Shown here in pieces: positions 8-64,000 of a stretch of DNA of 64,000 nt. The stretch lies in assembly GCF_964355755.1 (NCBI RefSeq), contig NC_092675.1:22850912-22914911 (forward strand). Direction: 5' to 3'. Numbering within the stretch: position 1 is the stretch's first letter; the number at the start of each line of letters is the position of its first letter. Origin of the DNA: Antedon mediterranea (lineage: Eukaryota > Animalia > Echinodermata). The translations under genes and the position numbers were made by a program. A model generated the notes under the pieces. The model was not told the origin of the DNA and searched no databases. It worked only from the letters and a program-made list of their open reading frames with translations.

Positions 8-2479
8 TCTATATATAAATTATGGTTAATTCTGACATAGGCGAGCACAATGCAAAAACTTCGGTACTAATCTCCGCCTTGGATACCTACCTTATCTATC
101 TCAGATGTACCGCGAAACGCAGATTTGATAACATTAGTTTTCAGTACTAGGCTATTGTTCCATATTTCTATCTTAGGAATTTATTATAAAGGGTTTTATA
201 AGAAATTTTCTGATTTCAATCGGTATATTTTAACTCTACGCGCAGTAGATGTAATTTCCGGGTTCCCTGCATGGTTGGTTTCAACCAGGGAGTTGTAAAA
301 CAACTCCCTCCCTGTTTCAACTAAGTTGGCCGTTGGTGCTTGGTGGCGATAGCCATTTTGTTTTTTTGTTTATTTTCAGACCGCGTGTGTGAAGGTATAG
401 TAGTACATAAAGATCAAATTAAATATATTCATAAAACATAGTATAGGAGTAAATTGTGGGAAATAATTATATAAAATTACATCGAGAGAATTGATAAGAG
501 CTTTTGTTTGAAATCGAACGAAACCCCGATAGCCGAGTTATTGAGTAAGCTGCCAGGACTCATTAGGGCCTATGTATACTGTGCGCTGTGTCCCGTCAGG
601 ACCCTGGGATACTTCTGCCCATGTTGCAAGCCGTCTAAAACGTCTTACTTCTTACTTCAAAACGGCTCACTGTGTCGCGGAGTAATGTATTAATTATACC
701 AACTAGATGGTACGCTCGCTTCGCTCGCGTACCATCTAGGTCGTTCCCACAGATGGTTCTCGAATACACAGTAATTTCAGCATAACAAAACTGGCGATTT
801 CAAATGTACGTACCGCAGGACTATAGGCCTATACATTGTCGTTTACAGAAACAAATAAATAGACACGATGATTTATGTAGTCAACTAAAATTAGCACCCT
901 GGGAATTACTTCCGAAGGAGAAACTTATCACAAAATGAGTCCAAGTTTTTGATTTGGACTCATTTAAAGAAACCCAATTTGTGTTTTGTATGTAACATTA
1001 GGGTTGAGGGATGGGAAAGCGGATAGGTACAAAGAGGAACAATTTTTAAATATATTCTTTATCCACCCAGTAACAAAATATTTTTTTCATGTTTTATAGG
1101 CCTATAAATAATATACCTCTAAATACAGTAAAACATTTGCGATTTAATACTTTTTTTATTTTATTTATTTATTTATTTCTTTTAAATATTCATTGTACAC
1201 TAATTTTCCCCGTGTATGGCAAGAGATTCCTAATTATATTAGAGAACATTCTTTATTTAGTTTAGTTAAAACTGTCACTGTCATAATCGATTGAAATATT
1301 AAAGTACCATGTCACGATACACCACTACGACGTTTATATTTGGTAATTATTAATTAATACAAACGTTGAGAAAGAACTGTCAGTATAAAGTTTATTTGTA
1401 TATAATAATGTGTTTATATATCTAACAGTAGAGCCTATCCACAATCTCGCAAGTTTATTCTCAAAGGGCCCATATATTTACCTACCGTATGTGTTAAACC
1501 AAGGGCTCATAAATTTACCTACAGTACTTGTGTTAAACCAAACTCTGGCAGACTGAGAGATTGGGATGTTCCATTCATCGCAAATCAATAGATTTGTATA
1601 ATCGTATATTAAATCTATCAAAATAGTATTTTTTAAAGAAAATCGGCCTGTCTTCAACATTATGATGGTGTACTCTAGCTGTTCAACCGGTTTTCAGCTA
1701 TTAAAAACAATTATCGTAGGAGGAGATAGGAAAATGCGAAGCCTCCTCGCATTTTTGTGGCGGGTATTTTTCAAGACGGACATCCATTATACAGTGTATA
1801 CCACGGTCGGAAAACACCCCTATTTGGGGCAAATCTTGGAACCTAAATTCGTTTTAACCGTCAATAACTTATTATCTAACTTAATTTAATTAGTAAACAG
1901 GGTTACATCAGGTGGTTAAAATCAGTACCGAAAGTACGAACCAACTTTATATACCATCGAGTAAAAATTATAGAAGTAAGGCGCGATTTACCGAATTTTG
2001 CCCTTACGTAAATTTATATATAGATTAGGATGGTATTTATTTGAATAAACGCACGTAACACCTTCCCAATAAAAGACTCAATTACAATAATTATCGCCAC
2101 TCCCTCCACCTCTCCCCCCCCCCCACTACCCCACAAAACACAATATTGTATTATTTTATAACAGAATTATACTATTTTTAGTAGATTTCATCGGACTGTT
2201 ATCTACAATTTACCAAGCATTTGTTATTCTTTTTTACCACTTTTCATATCTACAATAAACACTATACGTAAAACGCTATTAATCATCTAAGACACTGTGA
2301 AAGAGGTTAGTGAGTAGGTTTAGTTTTACGAATATCAAAAGCAAATAATGGTAACCGACCGAAATCGTTCAAGCCAGAATGTCCTTCTAAAACTTTTTAC
2401 CCGAGTCATTTTCATTATTCCGTGAACCATCGTCTACACTTCCTAGAGGAGGAGCGAGCTAAGCGAGCTCACCCTCTAG
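8..2479 (+). mobile_element. Non-autonomous Helitron, family B copy 1 (interrupted by a nested family A Helitron at 703-2024)
   Basis: Starts A|TCTATATATAAATT at 8 and ends in a hairpin CTAGAGG...GCGAGCTAAGCGAGC...CCTCTAG|T at 2479. Segments 8-702 and 2025-2479 align colinearly with the reverse complement of 8904-10217. 5'-TC, 3'-CTAG, A|T insertion site and no TSD are Helitron hallmarks. Confidence 0.85.
703..2024 (-). mobile_element. Non-autonomous Helitron, family A copy 1 (nested in family B)
   Basis: On the minus strand it starts A|TCTATATATAAATTTACG (2024) and ends CTAGATGGTACGC-GAGCGAAGCGA-GCGTACCATCTAG|T (703), a perfect 13-bp terminal stem. A near-full-length homolog lies at 36784-38035. 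Confidence 0.88.
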
Positions 2480-21200: not shown

Positions 21201-24200
21201 TAACAACAATTATAACCCACATTGACGTGAATGACAATGAAGGTAATAGACAAAACGAACTCGATGCTGACAGTGACAGAAACTAAAATAAAAATAATTA
21301 AATATAAAATAATTTTAAAAAAAAACTGTTTATCGTGGGTTTTAGATTCATTTTCGTCGTTTCCGTATCCGTGATTCATTTTCGTTTTTGTCACTGTTAT
21401 CTTCCATTTTTTGGCTGTTTGTCTTCATGGTCGTCGTTTTCATCTCCGTACAACATGCCATTTTTGTTCGTTTGTCGCTATCATTATAGCTGTTACCGTA
21501 GCTATTATTGTCATTGTCGTCGTTTTCGTCTCCGTACAGTTTGTCATTTTCGTTTTTGTCACTTTCATCGTCGGTGTTGTCTTGGGTATTATTTTCATTT
21601 TCGTCGTTTTCATCTCCGTAGAACTTGCCATTTTCGTTCTAGTCGCTATTATTGTAGTTGTCACCGTAGCTGTTATCGTCATTGTCGTATTTTCATCTCC
21701 GTGAAGTTTGTCATTTTCGTCCTTGTCACTGTCATTGACGGTGTTGTCTTGGCTATTATTTTTATTTTCGTCATTTTCATCTCATCTTAGTTGTCATCGT
21801 AGATATTATCGTCATTGTCGTCGTTTTCGTCTCCATACAACATGCCATTTTTGTTCTTTTGTCGCTATCATTGTAGTTGTCGACGTAGATATTATCTTCA
21901 TTGTCGTCGTTTTCGTCTCCGTACAGTTTGTTATTCGGTCTTGTCAATGTCATCGTCGCTTTTGTCTCCCCATGTCCCTTTTCGCATTTGTCACGTCATT
22001 GTCGGTTTTGTCGTGAGTATTATTTTCATTGTCGTCATTTTCATCTCCGTACTTTATTTTTAGTTTTGTCACTGTCATCTTATTTTGGGCTATTATCGTC
22101 ATTGTCGTCATTTTATTATCGGATTCTCCTCCGCCTGAAGTAATAGTTGCCGCTGCAATCTTCAATCTCATTATTTGTTGTTGTCAAATTTTTCAAGTTT
22201 TTGTCTTTGTTACCGGTGTTAATTGATCATTATCTAATTATTCTTCATTTTTAGTTTCACGGTCTAGTCTTTTTTTGTTACAATTCCAATGTTGTCTTTG
22301 CTTTGTAATAATATTACTAATATATAACTTTATAATTGTGCTTTAACAGACAATGAATGTGGTGTTGTCTAGAAGCTCAATTACTCCAATAGCTGCTGCA
22401 GACATGGTAATTATTATTTTTTGTTTAAACATTTTATCAGAATATCGAACATTAAAAATTCTATTCCGTAAAAATAGCAGGAACTATAAATACATTATGT
22501 TCATACTAAAATGACGAACAAACAAAAACAAAAGAAAAAGTAATTATTATGGATACATTCGAAGAAAACCAATTTATTAAAGAGTTTTCTAGACACCCGA
22601 AAGAAGAAGGTAAAACCTTCAAATGGCAAACCTGGTTTGGAAGAGCCAAAATGCATACGGAATGTTTTATTCCATATGTACCGACTGCGAGTTGTATAAC
22701 TAATGCATGGTTATTTTTAGTTTTTTCGCTTGGTTATAAGTCGGTTATAAAAAAAAATTGATTTAGACTGATATATCGCATTGGATGTAACTTTTATGTT
22801 ATTACAGTTTATACAACCTATTTTCAGATTGAGGATAATGACCCGATCTTCTGTGCTTTTACTAAAAGTCATTACTATAAGTATGTGCTGACTCTTCTTC
22901 ATAAACCAAAAGAGTAAGTATTCTGCGTTTACAATGATGAATCCAGGTTTTAGTTAATTACTCCTCATTTTAGGATCCACTTTTTTATTAGCTGCCAGTC
23001 ATTGATACAGTATACAAATATTACCTACCTGCTTGGAGATATCATCTGAGAGAATGGTGTGTTTTTCTTGATATTGATTGATCTTGCAAGTCGGGATTAT
23101 TTTCTAATTTGAAAGTTAATTAGGCCTATATTTAGACAATATAAAAAAAGAAATAATTGTGATTTTGTTATCTAATGTGTGACAAGGCATCTGTAAGAGT
23201 TTTTAGACCTAATTAATTTAATTTTAATACACGTATTCCTAACAGTCAGCTTATAATATACATATATAAAACTTTAGCGTCAGTCACGTTGTATCCTCTT
23301 TGTAAAAATTAAATTTACAAATTTAAAGGCACAGGCGTTTTACTGAAGAGTATTTTTCATTGTTATAGCACGTTTCAAAAGACAAGAACATTAATTTTAT
23401 TTGTAAAGCAAATTCTTTGAGATATAAAAGTACTTTATTCAGATGGTTAGGTATACGTTAGGCGCCGGTAAGCTATCTTGTTTTTGTCTTAAATGTATGT
23501 ACCTGTATCTCAACGCATCCGAATACACGTGTATTCCAATTGGTACGAGTTGTACTATGTTGAAATTATTAAAAAATTGCAATATACGTTATGCTTGTTT
23601 ATGTTAACTTTGTTAATGTTGTCATTAGGGAAGATGTCGGAAGATGTCGAAAGTATATATCCAAAGTATACAAGAACATACCTTGTGAGTACAATTTGTC
23701 CTTACTCATCTTATTCATACTGCTTCAAATCATGATTTACCATAATTGGTCATTATGGATCTATTCTGAGCAATATATTTATTAAGTATCAGATTATGAT
23801 GTGATGGATGCTAGTCAAGTCACTCCTTTTCAAAGTCACCTCATTGAATGTCGCCCCTTTGAACGTCAACCTTTCGCCCCTTAAGCTTGGTTCCCACTAG
23901 AACGTAACGCAAGGACGTAAACGCAACGCAAGCGTTTTAACCAATGACAAGCGAAGTTATAGACAGTTAGAAATCACAAGCGAATAAGCCATCACTTGTG
24001 ATTGGTCAATTCACTTGCGTCGCGTCACGTCACGCTTTAGGATGTTAGTAGAAATATAACTGTTGTGAATATTTTGTATTCTATATGGTTATGAATTTCA
24101 TCATAATTTTCTTTATCATAATATAAATTTACATCCTAAAAATGTACCGAACTCTTTTTTATTACGCCATTTTTAGTTCACGATGTGTATTATTTGGGTA

Positions 24201-43700: not shown

Positions 43701-46442
43701 TTATACATGCTTCCATTATTGAATAGGATGCAAGTCTATGTTTAATTGTATTTTTTGGCACCGACTGAGAGAAAGTATTATAGTAGTATAGTTTCCAGTT
43801 ATTTATCACGATTAATTTTCTTTTTTCCAAGGTATCTGGCTTCCGATATACCGGTTACCACATAGCATATACTATATGGGGTAAATACAATTGTAACATA
43901 TTTATATCGAAAATAATGTATAGTTTAGTATGTACAATAGGCCTACTTTAAATATTAACATATTTTTATAATATTTATACTACAATCGGTACTTTCATCA
44001 TCATCAAACATATTACCTGATTATCAGTGCTGTGTCTCCACATAATGCAATATTTATAGTAAGGACTGTTTGGTAAAACAGCATCTTATTTGTATCACAT
44101 GTGGTGCCTGTAAAGCTAGGTTGAGGTATAGGTTATGGTATATGATACTAAGATACGGTATGCATATGAAACACATGTGATGATGTATTATCAAATATTT
44201 CTATAATACTGGAGACTAAATACAGTTACCGAGAATTGGGTGACCATATTAGAAGTGGTTATAGTTCACTATATCAAAATAAAAATAAATTGTGTAGTTG
44301 TACATAGTTCCAGAGACATAGTTTCGAATCCTGGTTCAACCTAAATTTGTTCCGTTTGTGGATTTTCTATTGTATATGTATAATCATTAAATAAAAAAAA
44401 AATGTACTTTCTATTTCATTGGAAGCTATGATAACGTAATATGCATATGTTTTAGATTTTAAAAAAATCATATAAATACATAATTATTATACTTGTATAT
44501 TTGCAGGTTGTTTTCTTCTTCAAAGTACTTTGTGGTTGGTTAGTCTCTTTTGTATATTCTTCATCATTCATCCGTTTCAAGATGGAAGGTATACCGTCGT
44601 TACGCAGTTTATCAAGGAATATGGGTAAGTTTGCTTTTTTTCTCAAATCTATTTGTGTTAAGATTGAAAGAGATTTGTATTAGGGAGTTTCCACAAGAGC
44701 ATGCAAACGTTAACCTAATGCTATTTCCAAACATGCAACGTGCAAGCTCCGCACACTTGGTAAACAATCCCCTAGTTACGTCGTCAGGAACATTTTCTAA
44801 CATGGAAGAATTTTTGCAGAAAAGAAAATGATAACTTAGACCTATGTTTTTAATTCCAACAATACGAATTGTGAATTGTTTCATTTTACATGGTTTGTCT
44901 TTAATACGAGCGGCGTAAGCTGCATGCGCGATACATGCGTTGCGTTATAAGTTTCGTCCTTAGTGCAGTGTATTGGCTAAATTACACTGTTATACAAACT
45001 ATCCTGTTGATGTCATCTGTTAACGCTAATATTCTCGTACAAAAATGTATTATTTATGATTATTGTTTAGGTTGAGTTTGGTAGGAACGTATGCTTTCTA
45101 CTACTTGCAAGCATTAGGAGCTTTCCTGTTTTTCCTTCAAAATTATGGTGATGGTGTACTTGGATTAGACAACAGGTATTTACTATTTATGGTCACATTA
45201 TTTACAACTAAAACAAGTAGCCCTAACATTACTAAAGAAGGACGAATATATTGTATTATCAAAGAAACTCCAGTAGGCCTTTCACAATGTCTGTATTATT
45301 TTTTCGTTTGTAGAAGATACTTTCACAACGCTACATACGTGCTTATATTTTACAATGTCGTAATCGGGTTAGCCTCCTGTCTAATGCGCATTGTGAAGGC
45401 AGTGCTTTTTGGTTTATACTACCTTGGACGGCTGGATCGGTGTTTATTAATGCGAGGCTGGGAACTCTGGGATACAGGTAATATATAGCTGTGCCATAGA
45501 ACATATATTTTATCTAACACTACATGAATATACCATAGAGTCAATCTCGTCAATGGCTTTCAAATCAAGTTTCAGCTGAAACAGTACAATCGATTATACT
45601 TTTAATTTAAAAACAAATAATGATAATAATAGATGTCATTGATTATTTGATCATAGATATTCGACAACACGAAACTTTTAAGGACAGAAATTTCAAAAAA
45701 ATTCTTACAACTCACTGAACACCCTGGTTTAGTACACTGAATTTTAAGTTCTATATTTTAGGTTATCGTTCTTATCTTGGTTTCTTGCGTTTGGAAATTG
45801 TCCACACACATCCAGTTCTTGTATGCTTTTGTCAATTCATTCATACAAGTGCGTCTCAGAAAAGGTCAACCAATTCAATCTCCCAGACTCCAGGTAACGT
45901 ATATAATGTTTCCTTGGGTTTCTATAGTAAATCTTACTTTAAAAAATATAGATCCATCCCAACTTTAAAGTTCCTTACCAATTTTAATATTTAAAATTCT
46001 GCAGCTGTTTTTCTGTTTTGAAAGCTCTTTTTATTTCCTGGACGTTCAGTTTCTTCTGGACTCAATAGAGTCATATCATCGCTATTTGATGACGACATAC
46101 AAGCAACGATCTGTAACTAAATTTTGTTGTATTATAAATCAATTAGGTATAACAGGTCCGTATTACATGGTGTTTATTATATGTCTAGGTAAAATTGTTG
46201 CAAAGGTTAGTTTTCTTATTAACAGAGCTTTTTCCTGTTTTACAGATGTCAAGCTTAGGTACTTTTCAAGTAAAAGGCCTACTAACAGTGAGACTGTAAC
46301 CCCAGAGAAAGGTGAAAGTCGTCGAAAGGTAGCGCGTAACCGGTGGTTTGTTGCCATTACACTGTATCGCAACCGAAAGCTTGTGGCATATAGATCTCCA
46401 AAAATAAGTGATTTGAAGAAAGAAGAACCAAGCATAGTGTAA
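34728..46442 (+). CDS. STRA6L: STRA6-like multipass membrane protein, paralog B, ~658 aa
   Basis: Exons 34728-34755 (tentative start), 35412-35536, 35765-35850, 36174-36316, 36623-36755, 38883-38931, 39697-39828, 41042-41130, 41773-41834, 42168-42229, 42712-42862, 43249-43324, 43493-43568, 43832-43880, 44507-44624, 45071-45175, 45314-45477, 45762-45893, 46246-46442. Phase-consistent, 1977 nt. Many exon lengths are identical to paralog A (86, 143, 133, 49, 62, 76, 49, 118, 164). Motifs PVNLVDAY.DR, FKYSRRF, GLDNRR, GRLDRC, HTHPVL, KVARNRWFVAITL. Confidence 0.9.
34964..35363. repeat. ~200-bp tandem duplication in intron 1 of STRA6-like B
   Basis: TAATTTAGATTTAACGTAGGTAGGCT...AATATAAGGCCACCCTGACAG occurs twice (34964-35165 and 35167-35363). 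Confidence 0.88.
36784..38035 (-). mobile_element. Non-autonomous Helitron, family A copy 2, in an intron of STRA6-like B
   Basis: Same termini as 703-2024 (5' TC at 38035, 3' hairpin plus CTAG at 36784, A|T site) and colinear throughout with small indels. Inserted 28 nt after the 36755 exon end. Confidence 0.88.
38285..38463. mobile_element. MITE family 2, full-length copy
   Basis: Near-identical to 26603-26781. A further fragment lies at ~50585-50637. Confidence 0.85.
40430..40835 (-). mobile_element. Possible highly decayed LINE C-terminal fragment
   Basis: Broken minus-strand frames give RVFIYWWRL...W...VKVIL, reminiscent of the post-RT region of RTE-X/Tx1-like LINEs. Weak. Confidence 0.3.
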
Positions 46443-47779: not shown

Positions 47780-50700
47780 ATGGTGTTCGTGGTGTTTGTT
47801 TTTCTTTTATTTGTGAACAATGTTGTTTCTGTTCCAATACAAGGACGGTAAGTTATTATTGTGTTAATTTATGACTAAAAGCTTTTTTTTAAACCAGCCA
47901 TTGGCATTCACAGGTTTCTAAAACGTATGGCAATACAATCGTCATCATTTTTTATTAGTACGATTGCCATGTATTTAAGAACAATTGGTTTTGGCTAACG
48001 AAAATATAAATTTTCCCAATTTAATGCTAAAGGATATAAACCAATTATGATAATATTAAAACAAAGTCAGAATCTTCTTATAATGATAAATTGAACAATT
48101 CACTAAAAATGTTTCCTCTATCATAGTTAATTTGACACATTTCCCAGCCTTATTTTGTTAAATTCATATTCTGTGATGTTCTTAATTTGTTTACCTTATT
48201 AATTTAATTGGTCAATTAATACGCTACCTTAAGACTCTTGGTACCTATAAAATATTTCATACTGTGTAAATATATTTCATTACTTGAAAATGAACAAATA
48301 AAGCTCGAAATATTGTTTTATATTCTCACATATCAAACTTATTAATGAATCTTCTGATAAATATATGTAGGTACATAATGTAACAATACGAGCATCGTAT
48401 GGTCATTGCATTATATTTTATATTATACAATCCGACATTGATTTACTAAATACTGTAATATGATTTAATTATTTATTGTATGACTGTTTTAGAGGAGTTT
48501 TTTTTTGGGAGGAATTAGTTTACAAAAAATGTTGTCTTATACAGTACTGTTAATGTCACAGTAATAAATTTACACAGGCCTATACAAAATATATATTATC
48601 TATGCATGAACTTATAATAATTAGAGTAAAACAATGTATACGTATTTCTAAAAATGTTGATATATAAACTACAGTCCGATTTACAGTATTTACACAATGT
48701 TCGATATCATGTTACCGATGTGTAAGACCGGAATAAGCTCAGCGTTCACACGTTTATTCATTCATTCATTTATTCAATCTTTCCGAATCTCAGGTTCATG
48801 AAAGTAAAAATTACATATACATGAAATAAAATAAACAAGACTAATTACTACTAGTCACTCAGGATGCCATTCCACCTGGAGAGCATCTTCGACTTAACTA
48901 AGACGTTGCTTATAATCATTGAGACTAATACAATAATACAATTTAATAATTTAATACAAACAGAACTTCTTATAATAGAAGCTGTGTATTTTTCAATCTT
49001 TCTATACTTATACAATAGGTCAATTTACTACTATTCTTCCACTGATACATTTAGATGATTTGGGTAATTAGAATTATACTATTAATAATAAACTTTATAA
49101 ACGTTTTAGTGAAAATGTTTGCAGTAGGCAAGTATCTGTTTTACATTCACGTCAAGTATCCTACTCCGTCTCTTATCAAACCAAAGGTTACACGAAGTGC
49201 GGAGGATTTGGTTGGAACCGCTGTGCAACATATAGGTAAATTTTAATTCAAGGCATTTATTTTATTTAGAGACTTTAATTGAAAATTTAAATTTGAGGTC
49301 TATACTATAGGCAAAGAAAGTGAGGCTATCTTCTCTGGTTCCAACCATGTTGTTGTTTTGTGTGTAAAATGGATATGTTATTCTTGAACTCTTCTATTTC
49401 AAAATACCTTAGTCAACATTGAAATTGTTGTTTTATCATTACTGCTGGTACTAAATGCAATGTTTTCTTTAGTCGGCGATACAGCCGGGCATACCGTGTC
49501 CAGTATTACAGCGTGTACTCAATTAACTACTTTTGCTGTAGCGGTTGGGGTGAGGATGACTTAGGAGGATGTACACACCGTAAGTTTATGTATAAATTAT
49601 GTATTTAAATAAAAGTTGAAAACTACCACAAAATGTTCAAGTGACTGATCATTTGAGTTGCTGGCTAAGTTGTGAGGTGTTTTCTAATTCGTTATAATAT
49701 ATTATCATTATAAAGTTTTTTTCAAAAGTTCTCGCTTTTGTATGTCCTTTTTAACAATATATTATTATAGTTTATGATGAATACATTTTAATTGTATTGT
49801 ATTGTATTAATCAACCAACGAAAATCATGTACGAAAAATTCAACCCAGAGACCAACCAACATTATCGAGGTATATATGGAGATCTTTGATTAGTAAAAAT
49901 TGACGTAGTCGAGACACTGTAAACTTAATTTATTGTTATCGTAAAACAAAAAGCTTTGCCGAAATCACGCTAGATGTCAATTTCGTCTTTTAATTCGTCG
50001 GAGACTGACCGCGTCGTCAGCACGAAAGGTGCCTAATTTACATCACCAAGATTGTTGAAAATCTATTGTAAAGTGAATCTTTGTTTAAAAAAACATACAA
50101 ATTAACGGTATTTTTTTGTTTATGGATGGGTAGCATTGTGTCCACCTAATGATTGCGGCGTTGGTGGAACATGCATTGATCCTGACACGTGTGAATGCGA
50201 AAACGGATTTGAAGGCTCACAATGTCGTGGTAAGTTAATTATTCAATCGAAACCAATTCCATTTGTGTCGATTTGTTACTACATAATTATATATAAATCC
50301 AAGGGCAAATTACTGAAAAAATGACAATGATGTGGGTATCAGTTTCTGGATCTCAATGGAGATACAAAACAAAAGCGAAAAGCTAAATCAAAACGAGAAG
50401 TAAAAAAGCCAGAAAAGTTAGCAGAGCTTTCAGGCAACACTAGCCCTTCATCAGTGCAAGGGAGATCTTTGATTACTAAAAATCGACGTAGTCGAGACAC
50501 TGTAAACTTCTAAATTTATTGTTATTGGAAACACACATAATACATAATTATATATATATATATATAGATATGTATATTCGAACTGGCGTTGCGCTAAACC
50601 TAACCCGTCTTTGCGTTGCTATTGGGAACCAAGCGTAAGATATTTTCCTAGTGTAGGCTGACACAATTGTTATACAATTTTGTGATATTCTATATATTTT

Positions 50701-53700
50701 AGATATCGATGAATGTGCGGTTAACAAGGGTGGGTGCCAACATCTTTGTATTAACACCGATGGAGGTTACTATTGCAAATGTTACACAGGATATGTATTA
50801 TTGACAAATGGAAAGGACTGTGAAGGTAGTAACATAAATCACTCCTAACTATAGTTGAATGGAAATCTTGAATTTATTCTAAACTACCATAATATATACT
50901 ATTTATTTTAAACTTGGCTGCCAACAGTTTATTTGTAACAGTAAATGAATTAAACACACAATGTATTGTACGAAAACCTAATCCTGCCACATGAATATAA
51001 ATATACCTATGTAGAAAAAAAGTTGTCTCTTAAGCTTTCCTAAACCAGGCAAAACAATAGAATATGATACCGATTACACTTTAAATAATAATAATACTAA
51101 ATATACATTATGTAGGCGCAATCCAAATTACACATTTAATTAAAAAATTGAAGTAAAAAATAATACGGCTTTTGAAATATTCTATAGTTACTTGTACCCC
51201 GCCATGTGTAAACGGGGAGTGCACAGCTCCAGATAACTGTGAGTGTGAAGAATTTTATGCAGGCGATGCATGTGACGATGGTAAGTGACATTGAATAAAT
51301 AATAAATTGATTTGCCACTGGTTATACAATTTTTCTATAATAGACTAATTGTTGTTTAGAACACTCAGATTTTATAATAATATATTATTAATATTGTAAA
51401 TGATTTAAAAGTTGAATTGTCTATTAGTGGATGAATGTTGGAAAAACGTTGATGGATGTGCTCACATATGTACTAACAACTATGGCGGATTTGAATGCAA
51501 ATGCTTTCCTGGGTATGAACTTTCAAGGCTTACTGAATGTTTGCGTAAGTTGCTACTTCTAGAAAATCTTGTACCAACATTTTCATATTTCACATTAAGC
51601 AGAAATATAACAAGAGTTTGCATGGAGCAATCTATGCTTACTAACCCATTAGAAACAAATTGTACCCTCTATAATTAATTCAAGCATTCTGAGGAATTGA
51701 GTACAAGTATTTCAAGAATCACGTATTCTAATTGTATGGCTATATAGCCTAAGTAACTATAATTTGGGTTATATTAAAAATTATTTTTACAGCTGTTTGT
51801 GATCCTTCTTGCGAGAATAACGGCCAGTGTACGGGACCCAACAACTGTGTCTGCCCGGATGGATACGAAGGAGAGAGATGTGAAATTGGTATATATTATT
51901 ACACAATATATTTTTTTTTATCTTATGTGGGTTCATCCCACTTTTATTTCCATACAACTGTTCTCTTTACATATATTTTTCACTATACACTATACATATC
52001 ATTATATTTACAATGTTTGTTTAATCATCTGTTTACATATACTTATTTAAAGAGTTTTATTCATTTGTTTACATATTATCACATTGATTACATAGCTTCC
52101 TCCTTTTATACATATTATCTGTAACACATTTTCATTAAAATTAAGATTTTATAATGTAGTCATTACCAGACTATTGTATTGAAAACCGTTGAAAATCTCG
52201 AATTAATTACCACAATATTATTGTTTCAATATATTGCATTTCATTATATATATTTATTATTTATATTTATTTATATGTTTATGATAGATATTGATGAATG
52301 CGAACTCAACAATGGCGACTGCGAACATTTTTGTGAAAACCTTCCTGGAACATTTAGATGCTATTGTTCAGAAGGATATTCTGGCACCACTAACTGCACA
52401 GGTATGCAGACGCATTACCTACTTTACCTGTAAATATTCAATACACATTAGAAACATCTGTTAAATTTACTTTTTATACAAGAACTATGTCTTGTGTTGC
52501 TCATACTGACATTTTCTTTTGTATTTGATTCCATTGTTTATATTAAGCATAGTTTGTGTTTACAGCAATATTTCAAGAAATTGTTTTGATGTTGATCGGG
52601 ACGTTTATGATGGTTTTAAGTTTGTGTTGTGTTTAGAAAGTATTCGATTATTATCATCTTTTTTAAATGTTGTGTTTTGTACTTTTTAAATTGATGTGAT
52701 AGATTCGTTGAAATGTATTTTGATATTATAAAATAAATAGGAATTATTACTACTACTTACTAGAAGTAGATATGTAATAGAACAGCAAGAATGAGTTATC
52801 TTACTCTCAAATGGGGTGAGTGCCTTGATTCTAACTTCTAATCATTTCAACAGATATTGATGAGTGTTCCTTCGCCAATTGCCATAGATGTACAAATTCA
52901 CATGGTAGTTTTGAGTGTTTTTGCCACACAGGATACGAAGCCTACGATCTATACAACTGTGAAGGTACACATATTATGTTGATTTTGTTAAATTTCTATT
53001 AATTTTAGTTTCGTTTTTATGTTTATTTCTTTGTGTGTTTTGTAATACTTTGTCAGACTCGCTTACTTTTATTTTCAATTTACATCGCAAACACTCATAA
53101 TTTACATTGTGGTTATATCATACATTTCATTAAATAATATATTTTTTAAACAGAAACAACTTGCTTCTTTTTTATTTGTGACTTTTTTATGAATCTCTTC
53201 AATCTACTGTTATTGTTTCATCAGATGTTAACGAATGTACCAGTGGTATTGACGAATGTGGACAACTATGTTTAAACTCTATCGGTAGCTTCAGATGCGA
53301 TTGTATTGACGGTTGGACAATTAATAAAGATCAGAAAAACTGCACAGGTAGGCTATAGAATAAATAAGCATGATGATGTAGTTCTTTTTTGTGTCGTTTC
53401 GTTTATGTATTTGCTATTCAATACAATAAAAAAACAATACATAAAGAGATGTAACGTACTGATGCAAAATACTTCGCTGTAACTTAAAGTAATACATTGA
53501 TACTACGTTTATGTAAATACAGTGTCTTCGTCTTACATTATGTAGGCATATTATCAATTCGCATGAAATATTTTAACAGAAAGTATAATTATTATGTGAT
53601 TCTGAAAAAAAAAATAACCACACTTTAATTTCTATTTTCAAAAAAAGTATACAATTAATATAAATAAAATATAATTTCAATCATTATGTATTTTCAGCCA

Positions 53701-56700
53701 ATCCTTGTGTTGAAGTCGGTCTACCGTTTAATGGAAATCGAACATGTACAGGATTTACAACAGGCGAAATATGTCTTTTTTCATGTGAATGGAACTACCG
53801 TTTATTAGGATCCAATCTGAGAGAATGCTTACCGAATGCTATGTGGAGTGGTCATACAACACTCTGTGAAGGTTTGTTTAAACTGATTTTTAAAGCATAG
53901 TCTAGCCTAGACTATCAAACTAGTTTGACAAAAAGGTGTGAAGTACTCAACTTTGGTAGTCATATCATCATATTGATATAAGGCACATCACATTTTTTTG
54001 TCACATAAAGTTTTATAGTGTAGACAGATCTTTAATCGTTAGTAGTAGTTGGTAAACTATAATAATTTAGGCCTAATGAATTCATGCTGCACTCCTGAAT
54101 TGAACATATTTTCTAGACTTGCTTTAAGTTTCTCGTTATTGTTTTCTTAGCATTCCTTTACGATTTTCTGCCGTAACTACATGTAGATTCCAGCTTAAGT
54201 ATACATATGACACGCTATTTGTGCCAAAAGACAAAACATTCAAATCTTGTCTACAATATTAAGCCGAATCGCCGTCTACAAACTATATTATTATAAAATT
54301 GTTATATTTATGTAACATTTCGTTATGCAATAAATAAAGCACTCAATGGTGCTTCATTGCAGCATTCGACTTATACTAAGTTTCTGTATGTGTTAATCAT
54401 AGTACCGTGTTTTCCAATATAAAACCCGTATGTATGGCCCTTGCATAAATAATAAACAAAGATTCTTTCTCTTGTGAAAATACAATAACATAGTATTACC
54501 GTATTACCTTTACAGAGATGCTATGTCCTAACATTCCTTCACCTAACAATGGATACATCCTTTTTCCATGCGAGAATCAAATTGGAAGTCAATGTAGTTT
54601 TGGTTGTGACCCAGGATATTTCCTAGAAGAAAGTATTGTTACAGAATGTCTATGGCCTGGAACATGGAATAGCACTTTTCCAAAATGTATTGGTAAGATA
54701 CGGTAGTAACCTGTTCATATGTTAAAGATACCTGGTAATACTATATAAGCTAATTTCGTGTCACAGTAGTTCCAATGCTATTGTCAGATGTTTGTAAACA
54801 TTTTTTAGAATGTTGTGCAGCTGGTTGGGAACAAACTTGTAGCGTGCGGCGTCTACTGTTCAATATAATACAAAGAATATAATGACAACATCCACTATCA
54901 TGGGTTACCATACCAACCATTACACATCTTGCTTCTCTTGATCAAATGTATAGTCTGATGAAATACTAAATGTCTTTACATTTAGAAATGCAGGTGTGTA
55001 CGCCATCTCCATGTGCAAATGGTGTTTGTCGAGTATCGCAAAATGAGGTAGGTGGATTTCAATGCGACTGTTCCGGGACTGGTTATACAGGGAAGACCTG
55101 TGCAGAAGGAGTTGTAACAACACCAGATTGGCCTGACGTTTGGGTAGGAGATGTGTATGATTTCGAATTCATTGCCAAACCAAAGCAAGCACTTGATTTA
55201 ACTATTGAAGTAGATTCAGATAACGTGTTTGTTGAGCCCTATGAGTTATCATTTTCGTTAACAACAAATAATATTACATGTTCTATTCATGGGGTTAGTC
55301 AGGGGTTTGTAAAAATATCATATGTCTTGAGAGGAAATGAAGCAGCTGATTTCGTCACACCAGACGATGACGAAATATTCGTGTTACAGAACAACTCGTT
55401 GAACACTGTTGATGAGAAATTTACACCGGGCTATCGTCTGCCCTCGGGTTGTTTTGTACTTTCTGATCACTCCACCTGTAAAGGAATAGATTATTCATCT
55501 ACCGAGAAATGGACGAAGGTAAATAACGTTTATATGGAAACTAATGGCGTTGTATCATTGGCAACTGAGACATTCGAACTGCCTCTTTGTCTTGACGGAC
55601 AGGAATTTTCAATCGGTAAGACACCGTTGTCTCAAAATAATAACTGTCAACGTAAAAATGTAACATTGGCTAATATTCAAAGCTTTGTTAAGTTTAACTC
55701 TTTGTATCGTAATTATACGCGTCAGCTTGAAAATATTCTGCCAGACTGGATGACTTTCTTATCCATCGATATAGATCCAATGAATGCTATATCATCTTTG
55801 TCAACATTGAGTCTTAGCGGTACTGATGTTAAATCAATCGACTGGTGTTCAGCTGCTCCCGTTGTAAGTGATAGCCAGTATTCTGTCTTCTTACTCTCTA
55901 AGGCAGAGTTAACTATTGGTGGCAGACGTGTATCTCTGTCAGTACCAGCATTCAAAAGAAAATATTGTTTAGTAGTGGGTGTATGTGATATGACATCTGG
56001 AACTGTGATGATGGTGTTTCCCGAAGGTTCAAGAAATATCTTAAGTTTCATCAAGAACGTATATTATAATGATGTCCTTGCAGTGGATGTCAATGTTCTT
56101 GCATTTTCAAAAACGGATATGCTCAATCCAGAGAAGAGTAATACAACAGAACATCAGTCTTCTCTGTCAAATCTGAGTGAAAAACACAACACTAACATTT
56201 TGGCAAGTCTACAATACTCCTACTACATCAACAACACAGTGTTGGCAAAAGTCGAAGGCAGTGGAGATATCCATGTATCCCTTGAAAATATTACACAGGT
56301 GTGTTTTGTTTTAATTTATTATTTTTATTGAGGAGAGAGGTAATGTATTAAATAAATACAAATCGTTACCTTTATTTGTATTTGTATATATTTGTGTTTT
56401 TACAGTTATTCAGTCATCTTTTTATACAACGTTGGGAGTTTAAACAGTTTGGAGATTCCCAAATTACCTTATTCTGGAGAATGCTTGGTGAAGACGTAGA
56501 ACTAAATTTCATTTCAATTCAAGGGAGTAGACCGATATTGAGCTCAATCATTGGTGGTTAGTTTATTTTTAAATTAAATAATTAATACAACGTAACAATA
56601 TGAGAAAATGTAATGATTCACCAAAACCATATAACAATAATAATATAAAAATAATGACATAACCTCCTATGTTATAGAAGTAAATCTGATTTATTTTGTA

Positions 56701-59700
56701 GGAAGATCCTTTTCATCTGATCAAGGAATAATATTGGAATCATCGACGTCATTTGGGGTTTTTGACGACACGCCGTTTTCATGGTTGCTTAAGACCGACC
56801 AAGCTGATGTTGGCCTAGAAGTGTTTGTAGATTATGATTTGTCACCGAAACTTGAAATTCCAAGAGATCTTAACACCATGACGAAGATTATAAGTGATCT
56901 ACAAACCCTACCGCCTAAACTAAGTGCATTGGCTTGGCAGTTACTTTTTTGTGGATATGTTGATTTATATTCTGATCTACTAGCTGCAGCCACAGATTTG
57001 AATGTCAGTATAATGAAGTATTTCCCCACTTTAACTCAAACAGATTTGAAAGTAATTGCTAACGCTTTAGCAGAAATACGCATGCAGTGTAAAAGGAGTC
57101 TATTAACTCTGTGGAATGTTAACGATGAACTGATTAGCAACACGAATCAAAGTGATTTGCGAAGTGATGATGTATTAAATGTTACAAGACATTTGGAAAG
57201 TCTCAGCAATAACATTCTTATTGAAGCACAGAATATTTTCGCTTATGAAAGTACGTCTGGATCTGGTTTTCGCATGATTTCAGAAGTTTGTTTGTCATCA
57301 CATCTCTGCTTTCCATCGTTAAAGATAGAAGTATTGAATTCTGTGAATAATTCTCTTCCATACAGAGATCTTCAATCAATTTTTCAACCAAAACCTTATG
57401 TTTGCATAACAGGAGAATACTCCAATGCGATAATCCTCAATAAATTCATCAGTATCCAGACTGGATCACGATTAAATTTAGCTTTTGAATCTAACAACAA
57501 CTATTGGCAAGGAAGTATTCCAGTGTTTATCGCATTTCTTGGAATTGAACAAAAGACAACTATGCATCTTACAATGACAGGAACCTGTTTCAGTTTTTCT
57601 GGTAAGCTTTGGGGTCTATATGATATGGTTGGAAATGCTAGTTCTGAATTGAGCTCGTTCGAGTCGATGGTAATATCTCTATATGGCAACATTGCTGCTG
57701 AAGGGCCATTATCATTAGGAAAAATTCTAAAATATAAAGTTATTACGTTTTCCCAGAAATCTGCTGACGATAGCGAACAAAGACTGAGCCAAGCTACGCA
57801 TTCTGTTGAATTAGCAACAACACAATTACAGGATGCTTTAGATGACGAAGCTATACAAAATACTAACGTAGTTGAAGCTAGAAAAAAACATGATCATGCA
57901 GTAGAAGAGGTTATGGAAGCCAACATCGCAGTTGAAAGTGCACGACAATCATTGGAAAATGCACGCGAAGATACAAAAGAGGTTGAAGAAAGCTTGAACA
58001 GTGTGTGTACAATTACTGAATGCACTGGGGTATGTTTACCTGGCAGTAGAATTGTTACTTACTTGGAAGACGTTTATGCATACGTGCCATATGAATGTTG
58101 TAGTAACAGAGACATATCAACAGTTGTTTCTGAGACAACTAGTTGCTGCTGGAGTTGCTGGATCCCAACTGAGGTTAAGGGCGGTTTTAAATTGCCAAAG
58201 CTTGTTAGGGGTGTTGCAAAAATAGCAACTGGTAGATACGTTAAAGGGACAATACAAGTAGTAAATTCTGTAGGTAAAGACAGTGAAACATCGTGGACAC
58301 TAGGCGAATGTTGTGAAGAGTGTCAAAAACCTGTTTTAATAACAGTCACGTTTGAGTCATGTAGCACATGTGTCAGTTATGAAGTCGTTGGCCAGATAAA
58401 AAAGATTAAAACCGAAGAAGTTTCTTGCAGTGTACAGATCCCGGATGCTGAATGTGTAAACAACAACGAGCAATGTCGAAAACAGCGAACTCAATTATTT
58501 GATATAATACAAAACGTATCTCCTGACCTCACTGTACCAATTGAAGAGTTTGATGATGCTGTTTTACTTGCATCAATTGCAGATGCAGAATTGAACGAAG
58601 CTATAATCGAACTAGATGATGCATTAAACCAACAAAAGGTAGTATCAGACAAGGTATTGGCGTTACAGAAACATCTTAACAATACTCAAGAGGCGCTGGA
58701 CCAAATACGCATACAGGTTTCAGCAGGGCTAAATGTAAAGCAGCACCAAATCAATGGATCACTTGAAGGAAGTTTATACTTCAAAGACCTGACATTTAAC
58801 ATTGATCTAGTTACAGAAGATATTTCCGTGCTTCCTATAGTATGCTACATAACGCTATCATCCACTCCAGTATATATACAAATATTTCTTGACGTCACCA
58901 ATTTAAATTATACAATTGAAAATGCTGCTCTTTTCATTACGGAAGAGTTGTTTGGTGATATAACAAGATCAATTAGAAGAAGAAGAGACACAAGAAACAT
59001 TGGCCTTCACATAGAACGCGACGCTACTACCATCATTGAACAGCCACCTATTCAAACAGTAGATTATGTTCCGACAAACGACTCACTAGATACCAATATT
59101 ACTAGTAACCTTTTACGAGATCAAAAAGTTGTCCAAAATGAAAAGAAGTGCACAGACTATAACAATATACTAGATTTTATCGAAAATTCATTCCAAACAC
59201 TTCTGGAGATTGTAAATAACAGCAAATCTGGCAATACAGAGGCATTAGAAAATGAAGAGAGATTTCAAAATGACTACTTGTACAATCTATCAGCATCATC
59301 GTCACCACATGTTGTAAACAGTAGTGTATTTTCATATTTGAATTTGACTATGGATGATTTCGAAGACAGCAACTATACAGAACAAGACGATGGATATGAG
59401 CAAATTGCTTTAACAAATGTCATCGATTCTGCGAGGATAAAATCAAACAACACAAGATCACTACTTGAGATTGATGTATTTTTTGAGTGGGAAACGGTAA
59501 TGAACACATACATCTGTAATTGCAGTTGTATGACGGATTGCCAAGGTTTCTACGATTGTCTTACAACTGAATTGAATTCTTTAAAGTATTTGTCAGAAGG
59601 TAGAGACATTTATGAAGATGTTGTTGTCCTCGATGAATATATATCCATATTTGTTAGAAGTAATGCAACAAGTGCTGATGAAGCAGAGACAAGTGCGATA

Positions 59701-62700
59701 ATTGTACTTGACCAGGTTAGTTTTCTGAAAGATTATAATGATGTATGCTTAGAAGAACCTGTCATTACAGAACATCCTGAACCAATATTAATAACAACTG
59801 AAGGAGCTGCTTTTACTCTGACATGCAAAGCTTCTGGGAATCCCTTTCCAACATTTGCCTGGACGTTTAATGGAAACGTGCTGAGTGGCATGACTTCAAA
59901 CACATTGACACTAAAGCAGGTGAACGCATCTGATTCAGGTACTTATACATGTCAGGCTATCAATGCAGTAACAACAGTTTCGTCATTGCAATGTAACGTC
60001 ACTGTTGAATTTGCACCGTGGATCAGAGAACATCCGCAAGACGCTGATACTGAATATGGTAATAGTGTAGGATCGTATTTCGATTGCAAAGCGTCAGCTC
60101 AGCCACTAGAAAACTACCAATGGTATTTTCAGAACAAGTTGTCATCCGACATGGAACCCCTCCCAGGTCAGAATGTTTCGAGTATTCAGATATTAAGCCC
60201 GGGATTTAACCAAGATGGATGGTATATTTGTGAAGCATGGAACAAACATGGGCGCGTATTATCGAATCCTGCAAGATTTCAAGTTCTTGGGATATCGATG
60301 CCTGAGTTTTCAAGCACTATAACCATCGGACTTTATCAAGGAACCAATTCCAAAACACCTAATGCATCTTTGGAAGAAACCATTGCGAATGTTATTAGTA
60401 ACGATGACCCAGAAATAGAACTTCTCAATTACCAAGAGTCCAGTCCACACGGCAAAACGTTTATAACTCAGATAACATTCGAAATAAAAAGTACTGATGT
60501 CACATCCATTGATATTCTGACTGAAAGTCGATATGACTCAGCACAAACGGTCAAATATAAGATTGACAATATCACTGACAAGGTTGTTCAGCTTCAACAT
60601 TTACTGAGTCCAGCAGACCTATTTGAACATCATGGTGAAGTAGTGGAAGTAACAACGTTTATTTCAGATTTGAAAGGCCCAATCTGTCCCAACAATCAAT
60701 ACGCTCATATTGATGGATATATTTGTGGTGAGTTGTTTAGATTACTGTGATTAATGTTCATGATTGATTTTGTGTTCATTTTTCACATTTAACATTTTAA
60801 ACAACATTTGTTTTTTATTTTGGTATCAATAGGCCTAATTATTCGCTTTTTAAATCTCTATTTTGAAAAACAAGTACAATAAATAATATGCTTACTTTGT
60901 TGATTTTAGTAAACTGTCCACCTGGATCATATCGTGGGAATAATAACTTGCCTGCGATCTGTCAACTATGTCCAATAGGATTTTACCAGCCCCAAGAAGG
61001 ACAAACGACTTGTCTGAAATGTGATGGTAACACTAAAACTGATGTTGGATCAAGAACCTGCGGTACATTATAGTTGTTATGTTGTTAAAGTTAGCATTGT
61101 ATGATGAGTTGTTATATAATAGCCTATTGTTTCCTTGCGTGCCTGATTTTATAAGATAAATTACCCTATGTTTCTAAAGTTTTTAAATAATTGTATGTAT
61201 GTATACCGTACAGTATTAGTTTTACATGTTTACAGTGCATGTTATTCACTAAGATACTTACTTTGTCACACATTATTCATTTGTCACACATTTATCAGTA
61301 GACTGTGCTCCCGGATCGTATCGTGGAAATGATGGAATTTGTGAGCAATGTCCAAAAGGGACTTACCAACCTGAACAAGGAAAAAAGGAGTGTCTGCAAT
61401 GTGATGGTTATACCGATGTTGATGTTGGAGCAAAAACATGCAGTGAACTAAAAAGTACGCAATAAACCATAGTTTTAATATTATTCACGGTTTAAGCGAT
61501 GCGAAAGGAAAAATAAATTATCATTTAGACCATGGAGGTATATACCTCCATGTTTAGACCTTACAAAGTTTTGGGAAGCCGTATAAACAAACAAGCCTCG
61601 CCGACGGGAACGGGGGACGACGGTGGGCATGTCTCTTCCTAACATAACCATTGTTGGAAAAACATTCCTTGTCAGGAATACATTCAGACCGAAAATTGTA
61701 CCAATGTCACGTGTCACACATCCTGAATAGCATGAATGTAAACATATATTTAATACTAAACTATAGACTATAGACTATTGCCATAAAGATAAACAATATT
61801 TTGATGTATATTCTGTTAATTTTTGCTAGTGCCTTCGAGTACGTCTAAGACGTCACCACTAAACACACCACTACCAAAAGAGAAGTCAACGGCAAAGGTA
61901 AATACAATTATTTTCAAACCATCTTGGTTGGTTTCAGTAAGCAAATTCAATTTTGCTGGTTAATATTCCTGTTTTTTCTCTCATAACAGTGATACCGTCA
62001 AACGGTACAAAAATACAAAAGGGTCATTTTGGAGAGAAAATAATCAGTCCACCGAAAACTCATAATTTGTTGTGTATACATTGAAACACTATTCATTCAT
62101 TAACATTTAAACTGGTTTCTTTCTTTCATTGAAATTTTGTTTTGGTCATAAAGGAGGGCAACAATGTGGCCTACATCGTCGGAGGTGTTTGCGGAGGATG
62201 TGTTGTTGTCATCGTGGTATTCGTATTCATCATCAGAAGAAAAGTGACGTATAAAAGTAAGTGGTTTTTACCTAGCCTGACAGACATTTTATTTTTCGAC
62301 ACAAAATTAGGTAGTATACTATAAATTACGGTTTGACGGCCTGGAGATAGTGGAGATGTTGCGATTGTACACTAAATTGAACTATAAAGTGCAAGTCATT
62401 AATATTTTCTTAAGATTTCAGTGTTACTGTTAAAGATATATTGTCACCATCGCAACAATATAATTGTTTAGAATAGGCCATAATATCACATTATAGTTAT
62501 TCAATTGGAAAATAAAATTATTTACTTGAAAATACTGCAATCTAAAGCAACAAACAGTCAAATTGTCTGTCAGACAAATATTTTTATTTAAGCTAACGTT
62601 TTACTATTATCAGAGTTTTTATTTCAATTGGTTTGTTAAAAAGACATTTCAAAATTCGATTTCTACTACACACCATATAAGAGCAATATTCAATCATAAT

Positions 62701-63364
62701 TATAGGAATAACACCAAAGAACTTATAACACAAGAATCTCCTGTTCTTCAATTTGCATTCAAAACACAGTATCGGAAGTACAGGGTTAAAAGGTCAAACT
62801 GGGCGACGCCATTTCACAGCATGGAGCAGCGCCCCCTCCAAACTATGAAGTCAATTACTCTACCCCTCTAGAGAGTATTAGCAGATCCCCTCTATGATTT
62901 TGACTTTCTAATTTGATGCGGGCGCCCTACTCCTCAGTCAATTACTCTATCCCCCTCCCCCCCTAGAGCATTAGTAGATCCCCTCTATGATTTTGACTTT
63001 CTAATTTGATGCGGGCGCCCTACTCCATGGCTCACAATGGCGCCACCCATAGCTCTATTCTATCCCACAATGCCTTTCGAAATTGTTACGCGCTTCGGAC
63101 GAACAGGAGATTCTTGTGTTATAAGTTCTTTGATAACACGGGATACGATGAAAGTAACTCACTGAAAGTATAGTCATTCTTCATAATGTTTGATACTCAT
63201 TTGTTTCTATAGTTATGAAGACGACCGAAAATACTGACATAGATGAGACTGGGGATTATTTTGAAATCAAGTGGGAAGAAGAAGAGGAAGCTGTGGAAAC
63301 TCCACAAGGCTTTACGAATATTCAACCGTCAAATGAAAACATATATTCAACATCTGAATTTTAA
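47780..63364 (+). CDS. Large type I membrane protein (~2548 aa): signal peptide, EMI, 8 EGF/cbEGF, 2 sushi, EGF, unassigned beta-rich and coiled-coil/Cys-hairpin region, 2 Ig, SEA-like segment, ephrin-receptor-like Cys repeats, TM, short tail
   Basis: Exons 47780-47847, 49110-49235, 49473-49579, 50134-50229, 50703-50825, 51188-51280, 51428-51544, 51793-51888, 52288-52401, 52854-52964, 53225-53347, 53698-53871, 54516-54692, 54986-56298, 56406-56556, 56702-60727, 60910-61062, 61299-61454, 61830-61897, 62154-62256, 63213-63364. All phase-consistent, 7647 nt. Signal [17 protein letters not shown]; EMI NVCS...C..YS...CCSGW; D(I/V)(D/N)EC cbEGFs; [22 protein letters not shown] followed by RRK. Confidence 0.85.
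49878..50530. repeat. Dispersed direct repeat flanking an EGF exon (transposon remnants)
   Basis: GGAGATCTTTGATTA.TAAAAAT.GACGTAGTCGAGACACTGTAAACTT at 49878 and 50461. Confidence 0.75.
50421..50457 (-). ncRNA. Minimal type I hammerhead-ribozyme motif (Penelope-like remnant)
   Basis: Minus strand reads GCA-CTGATGA-A-GGGC-TAGTGTT-GCCT-GAA-AGCT-C-TGC: stem I GCA/TGC, stem II, palindromic AGCT, UC cleavage site. Confidence 0.55.
53905..54031. mobile_element. MITE family 1, degenerate copy
   Basis: ACTATCAAACTAGTTTGACAAAAAGGTGTGA...ATAGTGTAGACAGATCT followed by TTA. Confidence 0.7.
56702..60727 (+). CDS. 4026-nt giant exon of the large membrane protein (coiled-coil/Cys hairpin, furin site, two Ig domains)
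   Basis: Uninterrupted 1338-aa ORF bounded by AG at 56700-56701 and GT at 60728. Ig I-set motifs [10 protein letters not shown]...W...DSGTYTCQA and C.A...P...QWY...[15 protein letters not shown] at ~58966-58986. Confidence 0.93.
62849..63026. repeat. ~87-bp tandem duplication inside a GC-richer, possibly transposon-derived segment (~62800-63050)
   Basis: AGTCAATTACTCTA...AGATCCCCTCTATGATTTTGACTTTCTAATTTGATGCGGGCGCCCTACTCC occurs twice, flanked by inverted GGGCGACGCCAT / ATGGCGCCACCC. Confidence 0.8.
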
Positions 63365-63713: not shown

Positions 63714-63845
63714 AGCTCTGTCTACACTCTAACATTAGTTAGTGTGATGTGCCCAAATTACAAATATGGTAGTGATATGACATCTTCATGTCTATATAAT
63801 GGCACATTTTGTTGTCACATACAGTGTGATAGTGTAGACAGAGCT
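63714..63845. mobile_element. MITE family 1 copy
   Basis: TTA|AGCTCTGTCTACACT...AGTGTAGACAGAGCT|TTA. Confidence 0.85.
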
Positions 63846-64000
63846 TTACACCTGAAAGTCGTATGGAACTAGCCTATATCTAGAGACAATAAACAACCGC
63901 ATGGTGAATCGATTTTGTTATAAAAGTATATCCTGCGATTTCCAAATGCTACAGTAAAGCGCTTTATTTGACATCCCAAAATATAAAAGTAGAAAGTGTT

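Follow-up and report, generated by a model that had tools for sequence, protein, structure and literature searches.

An N-terminal EMI domain followed by an array of EGF repeats is the ectodomain plan described for CED-1 and Draper (PMC8092387). This plan recurs in a protein encoded in the window, that is, the whole 64,000-nucleotide stretch of the crinoid Antedon mediterranea analysed here (contig NC_092675.1, positions 22,850,912 to 22,914,911, forward strand). This protein shares with CED-1, Draper and MEGF10 an N-terminal EMI domain (31.8 bits against a Pfam cutoff of 25, scored on residues 24-99 of its homolog P0004), EGF repeats, a single transmembrane segment and a short, tyrosine-bearing tail. 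By contrast, the tail as predicted has neither NPxY nor ITAM, and the ectodomain adds Sushi, Ig and GCC2/GCC3 repeats, together with an unnamed core of about 900 residues. A sequence-only reading of this core had proposed an antiparallel, disulfide-laddered rod with an exposed, cationic and amphipathic tip, which could act as a pore-forming or fusogenic spike.

Other known systems invite comparison with the core. In the alpha-pore-forming toxins ClyA, Hbl and Nhe, long helices end in a hydrophobic hairpin, as in the layout of the rod; unlike them, the window protein is membrane-tethered and its tip falls short of transmembrane length (best 19-residue Kyte-Doolittle mean 0.39), and NheA was reached by the fold search at E 1.7. 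Class I viral fusion proteins are likewise type I membrane proteins with long heptad helices and a furin-type motif (61 of 75 rows here), but the segment of the window protein that might be membrane-active comes before the cleavage site, between intramolecular antiparallel helices. No hydrophobic fusion peptide of the class I kind was found where cleavage would create the new N-terminus of the transmembrane subunit, or beyond it, and sequence matches to HA2 were insignificant coiled-coil matches (E 0.077 or worse). Colicin Ia, the R domains of E colicins and enterococcal PrgA gave generic coiled-coil matches below the significance guides of the tools, and offer a layout analogy only: they are bacterial and lack a disulfide-laddered hairpin. 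Beta-hairpin antimicrobial peptides of the tachyplesin and protegrin type seem to be resembled by the tips of family members with short hairpins, and differ in that the module is built into a large receptor and that the window tip is helical. Finally, the choanoflagellate cadherin-repeat protein XP_001748133 of Monosiga shares the neck motif, a furin-type site, an Ig domain and a core that is homologous; its stalk, unlike that of the window protein, consists of cadherin repeats.

Results

Gene Context and Domain Architecture

The window DNA is AT-rich, of animal type and contains introns. The gene that holds the core spans about 47780 to 63364 on the + strand and would encode a type I membrane protein of about 2,400 residues, according to a gene model whose exon set is inferred from P0004 homology and splice signals. 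P0004, a 2502-residue A. mediterranea protein, is the best homolog (67% identical over the large exon), and its tblastn matches map the exons in order. This mapping, combined with Pfam searches on the paralogs, gives a signal peptide, EMI, EGF repeats, two Sushi-like repeats, a further EGF and an unnamed region, followed by the core, two Ig domains, a domain of about 140 residues, two ephrin-receptor-like repeats, the transmembrane segment and a short tail (Table 1). In Pfam, the unnamed region of about 400 residues gave a weak EGF match alone, and the 140-residue domain, provisionally labelled SEA-like, gave no match to SEA. The predicted tail shows one YxxI motif (YFEI) and ENIY, with no NPxY, ITAM or enzyme domain; ENIYS is also present in the tail of P0006, and NPxY occurs in 3 of the 18 family members that have a C-terminal hydrophobic segment.

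Table 1. Features of the core-module gene and of the predicted rod, in window positions.
Feature	Position	Strand	Basis
First coding exon, signal-peptide-like	47780..47847	+	ATG, GT donor; matches P0004 start
EMI domain, two exons	49110-49235, 49473-49579	+	Splice sites; P0004 residues 24-99 matched at 78% and 46% identity
EGF and Ca-binding EGF repeat exons	50130-53349	+	tblastn with P0004; Pfam EGF_CA on P0004
Two Sushi-like repeats	53694-53879, 54500-54691	+	tblastn with P0004; Pfam Sushi on P0002
EGF, unnamed region (~400 aa) and short linker exon	54985..56554	+	71% and 75% identical to P0004
Large exon, 1342 codons (~4 kb), with core module and the two Ig domains	56702..60727	+	ORF, tblastn
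Predicted beta-meander at rod base	57259..57693	+	Model residues 57-201; alignable to Monosiga P0060
Outgoing helix of predicted antiparallel coiled coil, ~97 aa	57715..58005	+	Model H209-305, block pLDDT 86-97; heptad count
Neck CxxxxCxxxC and predicted outgoing beta-strand, Cys 1-8	58006..58173	+	Model E313-361; Cys conservation
Tip, predicted helix-turn-helix, amphipathic, basic	58180..58278 (helices 58192-58227, 58237-58269)	+	Model pLDDT ~70, flanking loops <50
Predicted returning beta-strand and neck, Cys 9-16	58288..58476	+	Model E400-451; Cys conservation
Returning helix of predicted coiled coil	58447..58716	+	Model H453-542; antiparallel pairing in first model
Predicted three-stranded sheet and helix after rod	58774..58953	+	Model residues 562-621
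RRRR furin-type site, predicted disordered loop	58975..58986	+	pLDDT <50 at model residues 629-646; motif conservation
Predicted helical bundle, four conserved Cys	59122..59733	+	Model residues 678-881; Cys in 70-74 of 76
Two Ig domains	59752..60290	+	Pfam Ig_3 E 1.8e-26, two stretches; fold matches
Domain of ~140 aa after Ig	60304..60727	+	Pfam: weak matches alone, E 0.048, 0.12
Ephrin-receptor-like (GCC2/GCC3) Cys repeats, two exons	60910..61450	+	tblastn; Pfam PF07699 on paralogs
Transmembrane helix, then RRK	62166..62234	+	Translation
Cytoplasmic tail, acidic (YFEI, ENIYS); probably the last exon	63213..63364	+	Frame and splice signals

The stretch at 56208-60099 is not an assembly artefact, since a contig of run X1, possibly the source of the window itself, was identical to it without any difference. 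In another study, two runs from a related organism, X5 and X7, span this stretch unbroken; each differs by 25 substitutions, and neither has an indel. A chance ORF was rejected, as was, given the introns and the crinoid homologs, a bacterial or viral origin. The EMI domain (49110-49579) has a cysteine-closed aromatic loop of its own, CGGFGWNRC, which echoes the short-class rod tips described below; the protein may carry two probes.

Elsewhere in the window, STRA6-like (retinol-binding-protein-receptor) exons occupy 12376-46440 (+), with Pfam RBP_receptor at 45060-45485 (E 2.9e-13), and further exons of this kind, around 12376, 30256-31518 and 36073, point to copies in tandem. A reverse-transcriptase element at 6769-8572 (-), in two overlapping frames (RVT_1, E 6.4e-20), is probably a broken non-LTR retrotransposon. 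A rhodopsin-family GPCR exon (7tm_1, E 1.3e-12) lies at 4740-5174 (-). The ORFs at 21335-22016 (-) are of low complexity and resemble repeats, with many R, H, C and F residues. Very high-copy short repeats with many loose ends, at about 53930-54035, 63740-63850 and 50255-50805, in introns and downstream, are likely mobile-element ends.

A Mirrored Cysteine Ladder Flanked by Heptad Helices

The spacings described by the sequence-only reading, three, two and three cysteines followed by their mirror image, proved exact: 16 cysteines lie in one frame at 58006-58476, separated by 4, 3, 20, 0, 14, 0, 2, 50, 0, 2, 12, 2, 18, 8 and 6 residues. One mirror axis is common to six of the eight nested pairs, with position sums alternating between 1019 and 1017. 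Such symmetry arose in 0.44% of 100,000 trials with permuted gaps and in 0.24% with randomly placed cysteines, figures that are uncorrected for the region itself having been picked for its symmetry. The heptad character attributed to the two helices was likewise confirmed, with hydrophobic residues at 78% and 83% of a and d positions vs 35% and 45% overall, as was the acidity of the protein (net charge -92 for the large exon). The V/I/T-rich character attributed to the strands between cysteines is real but modest, at 30% vs 23% in the exon.

Conservation was assessed on 76 proteins aligned to the window, chosen by hand from 126 on length and coverage. In the neck, C1, C2, C15 and C16 are present in 76/76 homologs, C3 in 73 and C14 in 74, and an Asn at 58465 is kept in 72. 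Further along the ladder, cysteines vary, and do so in mirror pairs: both columns hold Cys in 54 homologs and neither in 22 for columns 324/440, with no discordance, and the corresponding counts are 6, 10 and 0 of 16 for 352/411, 8, 37 and 1 of 46 for 337/424, and 40, 4 and 2 of 46 for 336/427. These counts depend on the alignment and ignore relatedness, which inflates them. Columns 356/407 showed no Cys co-variation (p 0.35). P0003 lacks exactly the mirror pair C6/C11, and in one related-organism sample (run X7, window 58322) Cys11 is replaced by Tyr, within that same pair. Mirror cysteines thus appear to have been gained and lost in pairs across the homologs, a pattern drawn from the alignment and independent of the structure model.

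Predicted Structure of the Rod

AlphaFold2, run with a 77-row alignment, gave a model with a pLDDT of 84.9 and a pTM of 0.72. In it, a beta-meander leads into a helix of 97 residues and a strand of 49, which ends in two short tip helices (pLDDT about 70). A strand of 52 residues and a helix of 90 lead back, and are followed by a small sheet, a disordered loop that contains RRRR, a helical bundle and Ig. The predicted disulfides are nested, C3-C14, C4-C13, C5-C12, C6-C11, C7-C10 and C8-C9, with C1 and C2 joined to C15 and C16 at the neck. Standard rises, rather than model coordinates, lead to an estimated rod length of about 30 nm (14.5 + 16 nm). A first model, built from five sequences (pLDDT 53), left the tip unresolved and the strands at low confidence; in the fold search its two long helices aligned to antiparallel hairpins, over aligned ranges of 83..346. 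The antiparallel, disulfide-laddered ectodomain rod with an exposed tip that had been proposed is therefore supported by the predicted model, by the helix pairing and by the paired gain and loss of mirror cysteines.

Fold searches, considered also for the beta-rich three-domain fold of class II fusogens (fusexins) and for the ClyA/Hbl/Nhe fold, returned lists filled by the Ig domain when run with the good model, and generic coiled coils only when run with the first model, which is of low confidence in its strands. Three bacterial hypothetical clusters found in the ESM Atlas (0.82-0.83) were dropped, their scores lying within the range reached by shuffled proteins.

A Fast-Changing Tip and a Fixed Furin-Type Site

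The tip had been described as cationic and amphipathic, which holds for the window protein (net +7 over 33 residues, hydrophobic moment 0.80), in line with a cationic amphipathic membrane-active peptide, but not for its closest relatives, in which the charge is not conserved: over the two tip helices it is +5 here and +4, +1, +1, +1, 0 and 0 in six other crinoid proteins, hence 0 to +1 in five of the six. The tip is the most basic 33-mer of the large exon (3 of 1310 windows), and since an equally basic window occurred in 127 of 2000 exon shuffles, its charge alone is borderline; its best 11-residue moment, 0.80, is in the top 0.15% of exon 11-mers. The other crinoid tips are more hydrophobic than that of the window protein, with best 19-residue means of 0.82-1.09 in three paralogs and 1.79, nearly transmembrane-like, in P0003. 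With predicted helices of only 12 and 11 residues and a mean of 0.39, the window tip fits lying on a membrane surface rather than spanning it.

The tip is also the part that changes fastest: identity to four paralogs is 20-44% there, vs 39-73% in the ladder and 46-70% in the helices. Between the window and the related organism, the C1-C16 hairpin shows 14 replacement and 5 silent differences vs 2 and 6 in the helices (Fisher p 0.033). The hairpin pN/pS of about 0.76, from small counts that include polymorphisms, is not above 1, and this change is read as relaxed constraint, not as proof of positive selection. Run X4, the window's own sample, carried one replacement allele in the tip, at 58194, its only difference over 956 bases.

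Hairpins fall into three length classes in the alignment, of 42-55 (31 rows), 138-170 (41 rows) and 223-253 residues (5 rows). A wider motif-based census located 108 of 127 proteins, with hairpins of 31 to 253 residues; some mid-length ends were mis-anchored in it, and the alignment-based counts were relied on instead. By the Wimley-White scale, the tip is more interface-favourable than its own stem in 24/31 short, 33/41 mid-length and 2/5 long hairpins. Short-class tips are cysteine-closed, cationic and aromatic, and 29/31 are net-positive; 8/41 mid-length tips are acidic, and some distant members have acidic, Cys-rich tips. Those of P0122, P0126, P0035 and P0123 are Gly/Ala-rich and hydrophobic, P0122 being of glycine-zipper type. 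Membrane contact is therefore not a family-wide property, given the acidic mid-length tips and the few long tips that exceed their stems. What the family has in common is an exposed, variable end, often aromatic, basic or hydrophobic, and not a cationic helix. P0060, P0123 and P0006 have polybasic, furin-like motifs within the hairpin or tip, and some tips may be processed.

The furin-type motif is, in turn, fixed in position: RxK/RR occurs 150-195 residues after C16 in 61/75 rows and in 0/75 in each of four control windows, and the last Arg of the site is kept in 72/75. The segment after RRRR is polar and predicted to be disordered, and the amphipathic tip lies about 230 residues upstream. 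This site, together with the gene context and the variation in hairpin length, had been missed by the initial description, which was accurate as far as it went.

Family and Distribution

Word-indexed protein searches found only four proteins, all Antedon paralogs; a single crinoid species thus has four or more of them. A HMMER profile, built from the four crinoid paralogs and the window, reached 123 proteins at E <= 0.001 and 39 at 1e-10 among 1.84 billion representatives. In a midpoint-rooted FastTree tree, the short class forms one clade of 31 (support 0.999) and seven crinoid proteins another; the closest relatives of the window protein are crinoid. An organism is named for 18 of the 30 relatives looked up, the other 12 having none on record: Anneissia, Branchiostoma, Glandiceps, Ptychodera, Lingula, Tubulanus, Liolophura, Mya, Mytilus, Mercenaria, Ruditapes, Mactra, Nematostella and the choanoflagellate Monosiga. 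These are aquatic invertebrates, molluscs, hemichordates and amphioxus among them, and a bacterivorous choanoflagellate, a bias that may reflect which genomes were sequenced; many of the hosts are suspension feeders. The match to Monosiga P0060 covers base, helix and neck (pairwise E 5e-13). Ig follows the core in 25 of the 26 homologs scanned, Pfam finds cadherin repeats in P0055, P0060 and P0081, and many members have no EMI.

The earlier view that the core belongs to no named domain was borne out in Pfam, NCBIfam, PDB sequences and the literature. No Pfam match above the curated cutoff was found for the core in the window rod region, four paralogs and 26 homologs, nor any NCBIfam match in four proteins; PDB sequence searches returned only Ig and coiled-coil noise. 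Vitellogenin/LLTP, MACPF and aerolysin identities were likewise rejected for want of a Pfam match in the window, paralogs and homologs. The relatives looked up carried no functional names beyond automatic Ig, hemicentin-like and fibulin-like labels. The literature searched, mostly open-access, contained no description of the module family and nothing on the locus tag of Monosiga XP_001748133, which is annotated as uncharacterized. DNA-pattern scans of metagenome and viral contigs, made with short exact patterns, found no relative. Sequence comparison thus points to the core as a new, undescribed domain family shared by a choanoflagellate and animals, "new" being confined to the domain family and not extended to the fold.

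Discussion

Gene architecture, cysteine symmetry, a family-wide neck motif, a furin-type motif at a fixed position and variable tips, all read from sequence, suggest an ancient, undescribed receptor spike, which is likely to probe foreign cell surfaces rather than to puncture them. The rod itself is well supported. The cationic pore or fusion function first suggested for it is conceivable, and nothing in this analysis supports it.

We tentatively favour, as a possibility that we stop just short of calling probable, a surface receptor that captures or recognises its target by means of the rod, which would bring a variable tip into contact with a membrane or a surface polymer of that target. The protein would reach the surface via secretion and be cleaved at RRRR. 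The four conserved cysteines after the site form an even set, so the rod-bearing half would be held on the Ig stalk mainly non-covalently, and could be shed or pulled off. The tip may then lie in the outer leaflet of the target membrane or bind a surface polymer, its lysines and arginines favouring anionic microbial surfaces, and paralogs with different tips would have different specificities. By analogy with engulfment receptors, the short tyrosine-bearing tail may send a signal or cargo inward. The structure model, the paired mirror cysteines, the fast-changing and often interface-favourable tips, the paralogs, the EMI and EGF plan and the aquatic hosts are in line with this receptor; the absence of co-variation at 356/407, the acidic tips, the long tips that mostly do not exceed their stems, a hairpin pN/pS that is not above 1, a tail without NPxY and the moderate confidence of the tip model argue against it.

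A bolder proposal, which we regard as doubtful, is that of pre-animal, furin-primed "harpoon" receptors, in which a fixed chassis and a telescoping ladder of about 30-250 residues would carry warheads that act on membranes and differ between lineages, be they cationic-aromatic hairpins, wedges of amphipathic helices or hydrophobic hairpins rich in glycine, and that seize or breach microbial prey or adjacent cells. If this were true, these proteins would in effect be tethered antimicrobial peptides, or an unrecognised fusogen family.

The variability of the tip can also be read as protein specificity, the rod then being an arm for self/non-self recognition or for gamete or cell-cell adhesion, with the tip binding a partner protein. 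The multiple paralogs, the replacement allele at 58194, the Ig, EGF and cadherin repeats (adhesion modules, the last in P0055, P0060 and P0081) and the acidic, Cys-rich tips, which are closer in appearance to small, folded domains for binding than to anchors in a membrane, agree with such an arm. Yet the single difference over 956 bases in run X4 gives no sign of allorecognition-type high polymorphism, and the composition of most tips leans towards aromatic, basic or hydrophobic residues. We consider this explanation unlikely.

Quite unlikely, in our view, is a tethered or shed spike that attacks membranes, with furin-cut rods clustering and tips inserting deeply to lyse microbes or start cell-cell fusion. 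A family usually conserves its fusion peptides or pore elements, whereas tip chemistry is not conserved here, and acidic tips exist; the cleavage site comes after the tip, an order opposite to that of class I fusogens, and the short helices of the window tip are of low hydrophobicity. These observations have to be weighed against the amphipathic tip of the window protein (moment 0.78-0.80), the nearly transmembrane-like tip of P0003, the Gly/Ala-rich tips of P0122, P0126, P0035 and P0123, the apparent short-class likeness to beta-hairpin antimicrobial peptides and the conserved furin-type site. That shed rods merely form a brush or cross-links in glycocalyx, cuticle or matrix, with the tip as a sticky end, is distinctly improbable: the long rigid rod, the furin-type release, the acidic ectodomain and an EMI domain described as a multimerisation domain (PMC10381214) would suit such a spacer, but distinct tip classes are fixed in distinct clades and the tip changes faster than the stalk, which together suggest a specific contact.

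The module is common to a choanoflagellate and many invertebrate phyla, yet nameless in the libraries searched. To our knowledge, little is known of the molecular basis of microbe holding and recognition at the cell surfaces of choanoflagellates and suspension feeders. The make-up of collar links is given as unclear in one account (PMC4012994). Receptors that combine a fixed scaffold with a reach that can be adjusted and tips that vary are direct candidates for such holding or recognition of microbes, testable in Nematostella or a choanoflagellate, and their disulfide-laddered rod would be an unusual natural spacer.
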